A DNA stretch of 64,000 nt from an uncultured Gammaproteobacteria bacterium (GCA_963777715.1 CAVZRN010000010.1:22211-86210); one strand, 5' to 3'. Counted from the stretch's first letter, positions 57,001-64,000 are shown. Program-made: the numbers.

Positions 57001-60000
57001 TATATTTTTTCAATTGTTAGCTTCTTTGTGGCTTTCAACGTCATATTTTTTTTAAAAAAACCTACCATTAAAAAAAATACCATAGAGAATAACTACATTA
57101 TATTTTTTTTGATTACCATTGGATTAATTCTGCTTGCTTATTTATTAATACTCTATGGAACAATAACAAGAAGCTTAAGTCTTCTGCTGTTCAGCATAGC
57201 AATTTTTTATGTTATTTATCTATCCCGCAAAGAAAAACAACCAAACTATATTAGCTTCATTTTTATGCTGCTGTTATGTTGCACACAATACTGGTTGTCT
57301 ACCGCCATACTATATAGTCATTTTACTTTATTTTTATCCGAACATGTTAACAACACAATCGGAAATAAACCAATTTCACCGATGGTTTATTTCATATCTG
57401 ATCCGATCGCAAATATTTTAATGGGCATTATTACCTATAAAGCCTATAAACGTTACAACTTTGCATATTACAAACTCCTATCTGTCGGCGTTTTATTTGT
57501 AGCGCTTGCCTTTGCTTGCATAGTTCTCCCTTCCTATTGGTGTGGATTAGCGAACAAAATAAGTTTCATCTGGCCAATCATAAGCATTTTTATGCTGGGT
57601 TGTTCTGAATTCTTGCTGCAATCTACGCTCTATTCGCAAGTAAATAATTTTGCATCTACCTTAGAAAAGTGTGCCTATTTTATTGGGCTGCTGAGATTTA
57701 CGAGTGTATTTGCCTCATCCATTGCCTTTTATTTAATGTCCGCAACCACGTCTCATAGCCAAGCACCATCTACAAACCCTCACTCAGATTTAACACTATA
57801 TGTTTTCATGATGATTCAAGCATTATTTGCCAGCGCCCTATATTTTGTTGTTTGTCACTATAAACTCAAGGAGAAATAACCATGAGTACGATTGAAATAG
57901 TTACTTGGAAGGATGTAAATAAGTGTATCTCAGAAGTAAATCCACGCCTGGGTGGATTAATTAATGACATAAAAGGTGTGGATAAATTCCATGTTATTCG
58001 AGCCACCTACCCATTTGGGGAAGATATGATTGATAAGGGGGAATTTTTCTTTAACCTTAACGGACAACGTATTCCATTGGAAAGTGATAAGTTGCCAAAG
58101 ACCATCAAGAAGTTGCTAGATTATCATTGGGAGGCTACTCCTTTTGGAATTTTAACTAAAAATTCCATTGAATTTTACATTAATCGTGCCAATCAAATTT
58201 TACCCTCCCGTTTATTATTGCCAGGAAAAACATTTTCATTACTTTCTATTTTTGAAAATCCGGATTTTTCTTATTTTGTGGGCGGCTTGTACTCTACCAA
58301 GGCAGGCTGTCGATCTTTATTAATGCTGCCTAAAATCACCCATGAGCTATCTAGCGCCAGATTGACAAAAAAATATGGAATTACCAGACATCTTCTACCT
58401 AAAACTTTCTCAGATCATTGGCACCTGTTTAATGAAATCGTCCATTCCAGAGCATTCAAAACGTCCTGGGAAGCTGAGATTCACTTCTTCTCTAAAGATT
58501 TTCTTGCCCCTGTTATTGAAACATTAAATTTTCGACATGGGCTGCTTTATTCCGTTTGGCAAGACACAGGGTATCAACGGAATGTATCGATGACCTATAA
58601 CTTTATTTGGTCACTGTTTTTTGATACGCTCCCCATCTCATTAAGAAATGATGCATTCATTATTCAAACAGTTAAACACCTAATCTTAATTGCATTGGCG
58701 GAAGTTCCAGGATTTGTTCCAGAGGACAGTAACATATCTGGGCCAATTACAGAACTAATGGATGTTTTTTTGAATGATTATAAAATTCGCTTTCATTTGC
58801 CGGTATTTATGCGATTGCAACATTATGATGGTCAAAAACCCGCCTACTATTCTCTTTATAAATCTACATTTATTTACGAACCACAAGAAAGAGGGAGTAA
58901 TAAACAAACCATCAATGATCTGATAAAAATACGAAGTGTATTGTATTCCTTTCTTGATTTCATATTGGGTAATCGTTTTGAGCATTCAATAAAAAACACT
59001 GCCTTTTTCAAATCGTTGGCGAACATAGAGTTTGACTTTTATCATCCTGATGGTAATGGAGAAATTAACAATAACATTACCGAGATGGTTGAGGCAGACC
59101 CACGCTTCACTAATTTACCTCACCCAGGCATTTCCAAGTATGGGCTAGCATTTCCCATTCATTCTAATTTTTTCAGGGGCTGTGTCCGAATTCGACCTAA
59201 AAAACTTTCTTCCACTCCACTCCTCGCTTGCGGAAGAGGATGGATGTAATAAAAAGGGAGTATAACCTTTAAAAGGCTAATACTCCCTATTTTGTTCTTA
59301 CTACTAAATAAAAATTTTTATTTGTTAACTATTAAAAAAATCCCTCATTGACAAAGAAGAATAAGCTTCCTCCTCCAAGTCAGCTATTTTTATTACTATC
59401 ATGCAGGTATCTCCTTAAATTTTTATTACTGTTGTGTGAGAAACAAGTTAACTAAAATGTAACCCCACCTTTGTATTTTAACAGATGCAACATACCTTGG
59501 CAAAGACCGAGCTTTTACAGATATTAGCACACTGATAGATATCTTATATAAAAAATCAACAATACATCTTATGCTCCAAGAACTAGCTTTTGCGCTCTTG
59601 CTAACCAGGATATAGAATTAACTGTTATTTTTACTCCCAGATAGTCTAAATTGTTTTTTTCGACAATAAAGTAAAAAATTGCCATGGCATTTACAAAATC
59701 TTGCAAATCTTGCTGAGTAATTAAATCATTGCTAGTCATCCAGCTCACGGTATCAACTGAAGATAACAATCCATTTTCTTTTCGGAATATATTTAGAAAT
59801 ATTTGCTTATATGACGGTGATACTATAATTTCTTGAGTATTAATATAATCAAGTAATTGATTCATCAGCTCAGCAATAAAAACAGACGCTCTAAATTTTA
59901 TGCTTGTACTATCTATTTTTAAATATTTAAGTAAATCAGCACGTTGCATATCGAGTTTTGAATATTCATCTGTGTATATTAAATAGTTTTTTAATAATTT

Positions 60001-63000: not shown

Positions 63001-64000
63001 CCGCGCTGGCAAGGTAGAGCAGGGCGGGCGAACCAATGCCCCCTGCGCCTACACAAAGAACTGAGGTATTTTTTAGCTTTTTTTGCCCCGCAAGTCCTAC
63101 TTGGGGAAGAGAAAAGTGCCTGGAGTATCTGAGTAATTCGTTTGGCGTTAGATCAAGCATAGTTACATCTATCCTCCCGAAACAGCAACCACAATTTCTA
63201 TCAAATCAGTTTCTGCCAGCGGTACATTTTCAGTGAGTCTATGACTTAATAGGTGACGATTCAGATAGATATTGACGAAACCATTTAGTTCGCCATGTTG
63301 ACCAAATAAAACCTGATATAAGCCAGGGTGGTGTTCTTTCAAGTCAAGTATCAGCGTTTGAACCGAAGATGAAGCAAGTTGTACTTCTGAATTTCCTTGA
63401 GTAAAACGTAACAAAGGGTCTGGTATGGCAAGTCGGGGCATTATTTTAAGCCTATTTGTTTAGTTAGGCGTTACTTAAATTAGGAACTGATAATGATGTG
63501 TGGTTTTCGTTATCAAGCCCAACTATTTTAATTAGGTTATTCATTGTGATGCTCCTGTAAGTGGATTTAACTGGAAATACAACTACTGTGCTATTATGTT
63601 AACAGAAAAAGGGTGTATAATGAATGTCTTAACCAATTTGTATAAGACCGCATGATTACACCGCTTTACATTGCCTTACTGGGTTTATTCTTTGTTGTGC
63701 TTTCCACGTATGTAATGCGCGGGCGATGGCGCTCTCGCGTCGCGATGGGGGATGCCGATAACCTTGAGATGAGGCGTCGCATACGCGTCCAGGGCAATTT
63801 CGCCGAATATACTCCCTTATTTCTTATTATGCTGGGTTGCGCTGAATATGGCGGGCTGCCTGCATACTGCGTTCACCTGTTCGGCATACTCTTTATCGTG
63901 GGTCGCTTAACGCACGCCTACAGCGTACTTAAACATGAGCAATACCAGGATGGCAAATTGCTTAATATGCCATTTTGGCGCATGTGTGGCATGACCTGCA

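Follow-up and report, generated by a model that had tools for sequence, protein, structure and literature searches.

The 64,000-nt stretch of DNA analysed here (the window; GCA_963777715.1, CAVZRN010000010.1:22211-86210, from an uncultured gammaproteobacterium) contains an island of low GC content, some 7 kb long (56434/56512-63544), in which a minus-strand operon for a sulfur carrier, an E1-rhodanese fusion, a YcaO and a TfuA converges with a plus-strand gene pair for a major facilitator superfamily (MFS) transporter and a 455-residue protein that we call U455 (Table 1). The cluster is real and conserved; the same module recurs in at least ten other loci of uncultured gammaproteobacteria with an intact long TfuA and homologous peptides. 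The preliminary description of this DNA had delimited a self-contained operon at 59325-63544 within an AT-rich segment. The composition was seen correctly (36.6% GC in 56434-63544 against 45.8% in the remaining window, and the lowest among its 4.2-kb stretches), but the unit is larger: it reaches 56434/56512 and includes the convergent MFS-U455 pair, which is a constant partner of the operon, and ATP-grasp genes are added in some relatives. We lean towards the view that the island was acquired horizontally, is of the RiPP type (RiPPs being peptides synthesized ribosomally and modified after translation) with the minus-strand genes as one half of it, and produces, or formerly produced, a small peptide that contains sulfur.

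Table 1. Features of the island and its surroundings in the window, and gene order in related loci (coordinates refer to the sequence named in the first column).
Sequence	Feature	Coordinates	Strand	Remarks
Window	IS4-type DDE transposase	51107-52300		beside the island
Window	IS605-type pair including TnpB (53848-54996)	53192-54996		beside the island
Window	csrA paralogue	55797-56018		directly adjoins the low-GC island
Window	MFS-type transporter, presumed exporter	56434..57879	+	likely true start ATG at 56512 (455 residues)
Window	U455, 455 residues	57882..59249	+	convergent with the operon; starts 2 nt past the MFS stop
Window	Hairpin and U-run	59252..59288		between convergent pepB and U455; RNA folding energy of -25.5 kcal/mol (z = -5.8 relative to shuffles)
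Window	pepB, 25 residues, pepA paralogue	59325..59402	-	MIVIKIADLEEEAYSSLSMRDFFNS; AAGGAG Shine-Dalgarno; downstream of tfuA
Window	Promoter-like site TTGCCA-17-TAAAAT, extended -10 TG	59475..59503	-	ahead of pepB; consensus scan, 10/12 matches
Window	long-form tfuA, ~443 codons when repaired	59569..60897	-	broken by two compensating 1-nt frameshifts
Window	YcaO, 376 residues	60894..62024	-	ATG overlaps the E1 stop
Window	MoeZ/MoeB-type E1 adenylyltransferase-rhodanese fusion, 378 residues	62024..63160	-
Window	ThiS/MoaD-like sulfur carrier, 90 residues	63169..63441	-	C-terminal Gly-Gly, ends VAVSGG
Window	pepA, 26 residues, candidate precursor	63464..63544	-	MNNLIKIVGLDNENHTSLSVPNLSNA; GGAG Shine-Dalgarno; leading gene of the operon; lies 22 nt upstream of the carrier
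P0001 contig	ThiS, E1, YcaO, TfuA, then convergent U455 and MFS			YcaO 68% identical
L082/L083	ThiS, E1, YcaO, TfuA, convergent U455 and MFS			YcaO 59%
L084	P0001-type order without E1			YcaO 66%
L090	P0001-type order, but E1 divergent			YcaO 48%
L122	P0001-type order plus ATP-grasp ligase	7910-9088 (ligase)		ligase next to U455
L121	Rearranged; ATP-grasp ligase	1684-2877 (ligase)		ligase next to U455; PTR2-type MFS
L123	MFS, U455, peptide, convergent TfuA and YcaO
L008, L009, L011	U455 beside ThiS and/or E1, YcaO, TfuA			distant; U455 28-29% identical
L094	MFS-U455-peptide-ThiS-E1	6401-11010		no ycaO/tfuA within 8 kb
L099 (L099/100)	U455-peptide-ThiS-E1	2779-5327		up to the contig end
L119, Legionella massiliensis (CCSB01000002.1)	E1-rhodanese, two long TfuAs, two YcaOs, sulfotransferase, PqqD, flavoprotein, 64-residue open reading frame, C39-peptidase ATP-binding cassette (ABC) exporter	3168-17173

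Genes of a proposed sulfur relay and their convergent partners

The four minus-strand genes from carrier to tfuA are tightly coupled, in agreement with the preliminary description: behind the VSGG tail, the carrier stop lies 8 nt ahead of the E1 ATG at 63160, the last base of the E1 stop TAA is also the first of the YcaO ATG at 62024 (TAATG), and the YcaO TGA overlaps the tfuA ATG (ATGA, 60897-60894). Their identities, at first read from the sequence alone, were borne out by profile searches, in which Pfam ThiS, ThiF with Rhodanese, YcaO and TfuA were all matched. The carrier matches ThiS at 5.3e-8 (33.7 bits, cut-off 22.5), and its best NCBIfam matches are SAMP1 and MoaD, both under their cut-offs. 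The E1 matches ThiF at 4.5e-77 and Rhodanese at 4e-19 (residues 276-369), and its translation shows a GAGGIGSP nucleotide loop, two CxxC motifs and the rhodanese loop LYCKSGIRS, with the active-site Cys already recognized in YCKSGIRS. Against the NCBIfam MoeB/MoeZ equivalogs the E1 scores 375 versus 449, 329 versus 633 and 328 versus 647 bits, all under cut-off, and it forms a subfamily separate from them.

It is highly improbable that the carrier and the E1 have a housekeeping role, in tRNA thiolation or for molybdopterin, thiamine or cysteine, and lie beside ycaO-tfuA by chance. The best NCBIfam matches, MoeB/MoeZ for the E1 and MoaD/SAMP for the carrier, would fit such a role, but all of them stay below the curated equivalog cut-offs; moreover, there is start-stop codon coupling with ycaO, no moaE, thiG, cysM or ttuA partner lies within the island, the composition of the island is foreign, and the same pairing is found in at least ten loci.

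The YcaO matches Pfam PF02624 over residues 63-370 (5.4e-55) and TIGR00702 with 164 bits (cut-off 75.65), and its orthologues, of 374-376 residues, begin at the same Met. Its top NCBIfam match is TIGR03266, the YcaO of McrA-glycine thioamidation, at 173 bits and thus below the equivalog cut-off of 365; the SagD-type gives 82 bits, and the S12/uL16-type NF040716 gives 29 bits against a cut-off of 700. The best match in the PDB is the thioamide-forming MJ1094 of M. jannaschii, over the full length (3.4e-24), whereas the azoline-forming MusD, TruD and LynD match at 1e-7 to 1e-9 over a 120-residue core only, and E. coli YcaO is absent from the PDB matches. In a genome scan that took one genome per species and gave no match closer than 50% identity, the 80 nearest ycaO loci were inspected for neighbours, and tfuA directly follows ycaO in 78 of them; of the two exceptions, L012 is without a visible tfuA, and the sequence of L015 stops right past ycaO. 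The YcaO is therefore predicted to belong to the TfuA-partnered thioamide class and not to the azoline or uL16 types, as had been supposed.

The TfuA of this cluster is long and intact in its relatives and frameshifted in the window. Intact orthologues in related loci have 415-453 residues, and a long TfuA (415-490 residues) is typical among the nearest gammaproteobacterial relatives. In the model of P0149, an intact orthologue of 452 residues, the first 220 residues superpose on the M. acetivorans TfuA 6xp8 (E 5e-11, TM 0.84, 37% identity), and the helical C-terminal extension of about 230 residues gave no structural match. Against NF033432 the intact orthologous TfuA scores 190.5 bits, below the equivalog cut-off of 235.2. 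In the window, the ATG frame of tfuA runs for 13 codons (MNIDVIVFLAPPF) and then meets a stop; by tblastn, residues 8-87 of P0149 are encoded at 60877-60638 in a second frame with 70% identity, and residues 89-441 at 60633-59560 in the first frame again. Codons ~9-88 (about 80) are out of frame, and the ATG frame holds several stops there. At the first site, a T5 run (60878-60874), a T6 would restore ATC GTT TTT TCT GGC; at the second, at about 60636, there is an extra T (GCAG[T]AGCTT) where GCA GAG CTT GAT, for AELD, is expected. The Pfam TfuA domain (PF07812) is correspondingly split over the open reading frames 60835..60629 and 60618..59569 (5e-16 and 2e-17). An intact reading frame is thus lacking for tfuA, and the remaining island genes all match the lengths of their orthologues.

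These frameshifts could be assembly errors, the gene being intact in the organism, which we regard as possible without thinking it the probable case. The first site is a homopolymer, the out-of-frame stretch retains its identity to the orthologues, and the core gene sucC (succinyl-CoA ligase beta subunit, 1500-2676) is likewise frameshifted, its two frames breaking at a (CG)n run (2226-2241), with the neighbouring sucD (2725-3597) intact. In addition, run ERR11523676 supplies two Logan contigs, assembled independently, whose matches to the window break off at 60912 and 60318, flanking both sites, so that the 600 nt that hold them (60318-60912) are uncovered and the frameshifts have no independent confirmation. 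On the other hand, the second site is a single-base insertion outside a homopolymer, and the insertion sequence (IS) elements of the window fit a decaying, host-restricted genome. With tfuA frameshifted twice, this strain probably has no active pathway, or one confined to what YcaO manages with free sulfide; because the window copy is probably defective, the intact relatives L082 (8500-15123) and L122 (5150-13253) are the ones to study.

The convergent partners are less familiar. U455 has no sequence match in Pfam, NCBIfam or the PDB, and no Pfam domain was found in seven distant members of its family, which comprises 1,380 clusters at 50% identity (E < 1e-3). Its AlphaFold2 model is confident (predicted local distance difference test 88, predicted TM-score 0.87), and a Foldseek search of the PDB returned weak CRP/FNR beta-barrel matches only (E of at least 5e-3, TM ~0.25), with no convincing fold. 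Cys434, His388 and Asp406 are invariant and Cys143 nearly so; it is a speculation that the conserved Cys, His and Asp residues may form a catalytic or metal site. Of its close orthologues (42% identity or more), all eight whose neighbourhood was seen stand beside ycaO-tfuA. Distant homologues are mostly solitary, such as those of L091 (7989-9389) and L098 (7989-9407), which lie alone amid glycolysis and other housekeeping genes, and the family as a whole is therefore not restricted to these clusters. The MFS gene, called with 455 residues on an independent contig, matches Pfam MFS_1 at 2e-7 (30.7 bits, below the cut-off of 33.4), and its orthologue precedes U455 in L082, L090, L094, L122 and L123.

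An acidic peptide family in a probably mobile module

The presence of two short paralogous peptide genes and a convergent exporter, noted previously, is confirmed, and the peptides turn out to be conserved. A hidden Markov model (HMM) built from pepA, pepB and the peptide of L082 retrieved a 26-residue open reading frame at the pepB position in L084 (2e-9), and the updated models retrieved, at the pepA position, open reading frames of 36 residues in L090 (3e-4) and 30 residues in L122 (1.5e-3); all three matches lie inside the cluster. Peptides resembling pepA occupy the same position in L082, L090 and L122, and one resembling pepB does so in L084, where its gene points the same way as ycaO-tfuA and converges with U455; a more remote counterpart of pepB occurs in L123. 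A related pair beginning MQDD occurs in L121 and L123, the L121 peptide directly upstream of ycaO, and L008 and L011 encode peptides of 48-49 residues with a similar core. Altogether, ten peptides from nine locus types, with significant HMM matches, provide a conserved, short candidate precursor of the kind expected of a RiPP cluster.

The homologous peptides of the related module loci have 25-36 residues, and all members of the family are acidic. The N-terminal half has phi-I-x-I-x-x-L-D-x-E in common and the C-terminal 8-15 residues vary, as one would expect of a leader that is conserved and a core that varies. The invariant Leu, Ser and Pro residues are encoded by differing synonymous codons between loci, which indicates that the open reading frames are protein-coding. 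No curated precursor family of NCBIfam matches the peptides. We consider peptides of the pepA/pepB type likely candidate substrates of the YcaO, given their conserved co-location, and the preliminary view of a system with no known substrate was too pessimistic in this respect. At the end of the operon, the hairpin beyond pepB is likely to be a bidirectional terminator that closes it. The promoter-like site ahead of pepB is a consensus match only, the number of such sites in the region being not above shuffle expectation.

Comparison of the gene neighbourhood across genomes, which had been proposed as a check, shows that the flanking genes vary from locus to locus. The neighbours in L123 are two integrases, CsrA, a VirB11-like ATPase and TrbC, and this locus therefore looks like an integrative conjugative element (ICE). 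Together with csrA and the IS elements beside the window island, this suggests that the cluster is ICE cargo. The low GC content, the differing flanks, the ICE-like setting of L123 and the csrA/IS genes next to the window island all count in favour of horizontal acquisition of a RiPP-type island. The ATP-grasp ligase gene of L121 and L122 is absent from the window. Two further islands, L094 and L099, encode 27-residue, Cys-containing relatives of pepA and pepB (MKLYSIALNSELAHDFSSCYAAEMLTC; MKTLVDVKFVDLSSCATEALGALEAYI). Conversely, L086 (65% identity) has ThiS-YcaO-TfuA followed by a UvrD-type helicase gene, without U455 and without a peptide.

A proposed composite pathway and its alternatives

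On balance we favour, with restrained confidence, one composite RiPP-type pathway. Its first step would be the adenylation of the Gly-Gly terminus of the carrier by the E1 domain, after which the fused rhodanese would pass persulfide sulfur to yield the carrier thiocarboxylate (carrier-COSH). The chemistry behind carrier-COSH formation is established for MoeZ/CysO and MOCS3/Urm1-type pairs. The N-terminal 220 residues of TfuA would then, by analogy with the M. acetivorans protein, for which this is established, hydrolyse the thiocarboxylate and pass sulfide to YcaO. Hydrolysis of ThiS-COSH by TfuA, as a sulfur donor, is cited as established (PMC13063428; PMC8939145). In the third step, YcaO with ATP would activate a backbone amide of pepA or pepB and form a thioamide, the substrate being suggested by co-location. 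U455, and in some relatives the ATP-grasp ligase, might modify or process the peptide further, and the MFS protein would presumably export the product. The steps up to the thioamide follow from the established chemistry of homologous families, and the choice of substrate, the U455 step and the export step follow from gene association. The preliminary description had proposed a complete route from sulfur activation to thioamide installation; a relay from E1-rhodanese through carrier-COSH and TfuA to YcaO is indeed the best reading of these genes, but the two frameshifts in tfuA mean that the route probably does not operate here.

Several observations weigh against the composite pathway. The substrate is assigned throughout by guilt by association, and the peptides follow the distribution of U455 no less closely than that of YcaO. 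The close YcaO-TfuA loci that lack U455 (L086, L087, L088/89, L002-L004, L007) show no such peptide, a search for a neighbouring peptide in L002-L004 and L086-L089 having yielded nothing convincing, and U455-less loci of this kind often sit amid housekeeping genes. In L094, peptide, U455 and ThiS-E1 occur together with no ycaO/tfuA within 8 kb. In the window cluster, neither a RiPP recognition element (PqqD) nor a leader peptidase nor any other classical RiPP accessory was detected by Pfam or NCBIfam. Finally, there are the double frameshift in tfuA and that in sucC, the latter reflecting either genome decay or indel errors of the assembly.

Such observations could also mean that two modules share a neighbourhood and a sulfur relay, with ThiS-E1-YcaO-TfuA thioamidating a target encoded elsewhere, such as a housekeeping protein (compare McrA of methanogens and uL16 of E. 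coli), and with the peptides belonging to MFS-U455. This would account for the occurrence of YcaO and long TfuA, with or without ThiS/E1, amid housekeeping genes and without peptides, U455 or tailoring genes (L002, beside Fpg; L086, beside the UvrD-type helicase; L007, beside a sigma-70 factor and PurA; L003, beside FtsQ), and for the MFS-U455-peptide-ThiS-E1 set of L094. Nevertheless, the two modules are adjacent in all eight of the close U455 loci despite rearrangements and differing flanks, and the peptide genes lie inside the ycaO operon, with pepA first and pepB last in the window and the L121 peptide right before ycaO. In addition, the known uL16-modifying YcaOs work without TfuA (PMC13063428), and the window YcaO scores far beneath the cut-off of that family. 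We therefore judge an arrangement of two such modules unlikely.

The co-variation of the peptides with U455 raises another alternative, in which U455 is the enzyme chiefly responsible for modifying the peptides and the principal consumer of carrier-COSH, or uses the carrier and E1 in another manner, and YcaO-TfuA is added tailoring. L094 and L099/100, which link U455, peptide, ThiS and E1, are in line with this, as are the confident fold of U455, its invariant Cys434, His388 and Asp406 and near-invariant Cys143, and its lack of a known homologue. However, most distant homologues (L091, L098, L106-L117) stand alone in housekeeping contexts without ThiS/E1 or peptides, so that the U455 family is not generally tied to the sulfur relay, and no catalytic motif or fold match favours any particular chemistry. 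A principal role for U455 thus seems quite improbable to us, and the composite pathway is retained. A bolder extension, which we put forward as a doubtful conjecture, is that U455 founds a new family of peptide-modifying enzymes and, together with a dedicated carrier and E1-rhodanese, makes ribosomal peptides of a new class, small, acidic and sulfur-containing, in intracellular or host-associated gammaproteobacteria; YcaO and a substrate-binding long TfuA would add thioamides, and the system would spread by ICE-like elements.

This variant is compact, with six or seven genes, a sulfur supply of its own and a very short candidate substrate, and would be convenient for studying the cooperation of carrier-COSH, TfuA and YcaO. 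The cluster could assign a function to the large, unannotated U455 family (~1,400 clusters at 50% identity) and could reveal the role of the 230-residue TfuA extension. That it occurs on mobile elements, and in bacteria that are little sampled and probably associated with hosts, hints that it may serve in competition or in interaction with a host.

Relation to known systems and surroundings of the island

The cluster is of a known general kind, and its novelty had been overstated. In archaea, overlapping ycaO-tfuA genes near thiF, moaD, moeB and rhodanese genes were described in 2017 (PMC5589413), and a survey of 2021 counted more than 1,000 TfuA-type clusters in Proteobacteria, none of which was characterised then (PMC8120280); the window cluster falls in the same broad class as these proteobacterial TfuA-related clusters. 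A graspetide survey noted the association of ATP-grasp with YcaO-TfuA but not a cluster of the window type. In the literature that we found, whose coverage is incomplete, there is no description of U455, the acidic-peptide family or the long TfuA variant; in this form the cluster is undescribed there, and the concern that it might be an already characterised locus was not borne out.

The closest comparison is the McrA thioglycine system of methanogens, in which the ycaO stop likewise overlaps the tfuA start, sulfur-carrier, E1 and rhodanese genes are nearby in some archaea (PMC5589413), and the YcaO and TfuA stand nearest to ours among curated families and solved structures (TIGR03266, NF033432, MJ1094, 6xp8). 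In contrast to that system, the island contains no McrA, the window-type TfuA carries the additional helical extension of ~230 residues, and the window has small peptide genes, an exporter, U455 and the setting of a bacterial mobile island. Since the window YcaO and the orthologous TfuA both score under the equivalog cut-offs, assignment to the McrA equivalogs was rejected. Actinobacterial YcaO-TfuA RiPPs (thioamitides, thiovarsolins and thioamidated thiopeptides) also combine a short precursor with a YcaO-TfuA pair, and the thiovarsolin cluster has an MFS gene (PMC8120280; PMC8153245). Unlike them, the window cluster has no aminovinylcysteine (AviCys), dehydratase or methyltransferase tailoring genes, its precursors are unrelated (without an NCBIfam match), and it includes a carrier, an E1-rhodanese, a long TfuA and U455. 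A thioamitide was accordingly rejected, as AviCys and dehydratase genes are absent from the island and the precursors are unrelated. Tiarins, the trifolitoxin-like peptides, are defined by a TfxB/TfxC pair and a precursor with a conserved Gln motif (bioRxiv 10.64898/2025.12.02.691738); this class was rejected because the island lacks the TfxB/TfxC nitroreductase-type dehydrogenase pair.

The cluster of L. massiliensis shares the E1-rhodanese, the long TfuA and the YcaO and is clearly a RiPP-type relative of the window cluster. It differs by its second YcaO-TfuA pair and by the presence of PqqD, of a sulfotransferase and of a C39-ABC exporter, and it is without U455 and ThiS. MoeZ-CysO of M. 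tuberculosis and similar pairs resemble the carrier and E1 of the window in their ThiF-rhodanese fusion with an active-site Cys, in a carrier of about 90 residues that ends in Gly-Gly, and in their adjacent, coupled genes; in the window, by contrast, the downstream user would by position be TfuA/YcaO, possibly U455, instead of CysM, MoaE or ThiG. The uL16 YcaO of the E. coli type is also proteobacterial, and it installs a backbone thioamide (PMC13063428), but its family has neither a TfuA partner nor a linked carrier, and this type was rejected on its NF040716 score.

Around the island, no tRNA gene or Rfam family was found in or near it. Between csrA and the MFS gene (56259-56365, plus strand), a promoter-like TTCCCA-16-TATAAT with TG is followed after ~35 nt by a strong 14-bp GC-rich terminator hairpin; the two may delimit a small RNA of ~70 nt, one with no Rfam match. 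Elsewhere in the window (42732-48883 and 30943-35091) there are a type I polyketide synthase pair (ketosynthase-acyltransferase, then ketoreductase-dehydratase) and a 1382-residue protein with FAD-oxidase, adenylation, carrier and thioesterase domains. Eukaryote-like proteins are encoded at 14887-20061, 38475-41204, 35246-37063 and 49379-50953; the set comprises a 1724-residue HEAT/ankyrin/OTU-protease protein, a 909-residue leucine-rich repeat protein, a patatin phospholipase that binds cyclic nucleotide monophosphates and an animal-type haem peroxidase, and it resembles the effector-like repertoire typical of intracellular bacteria.

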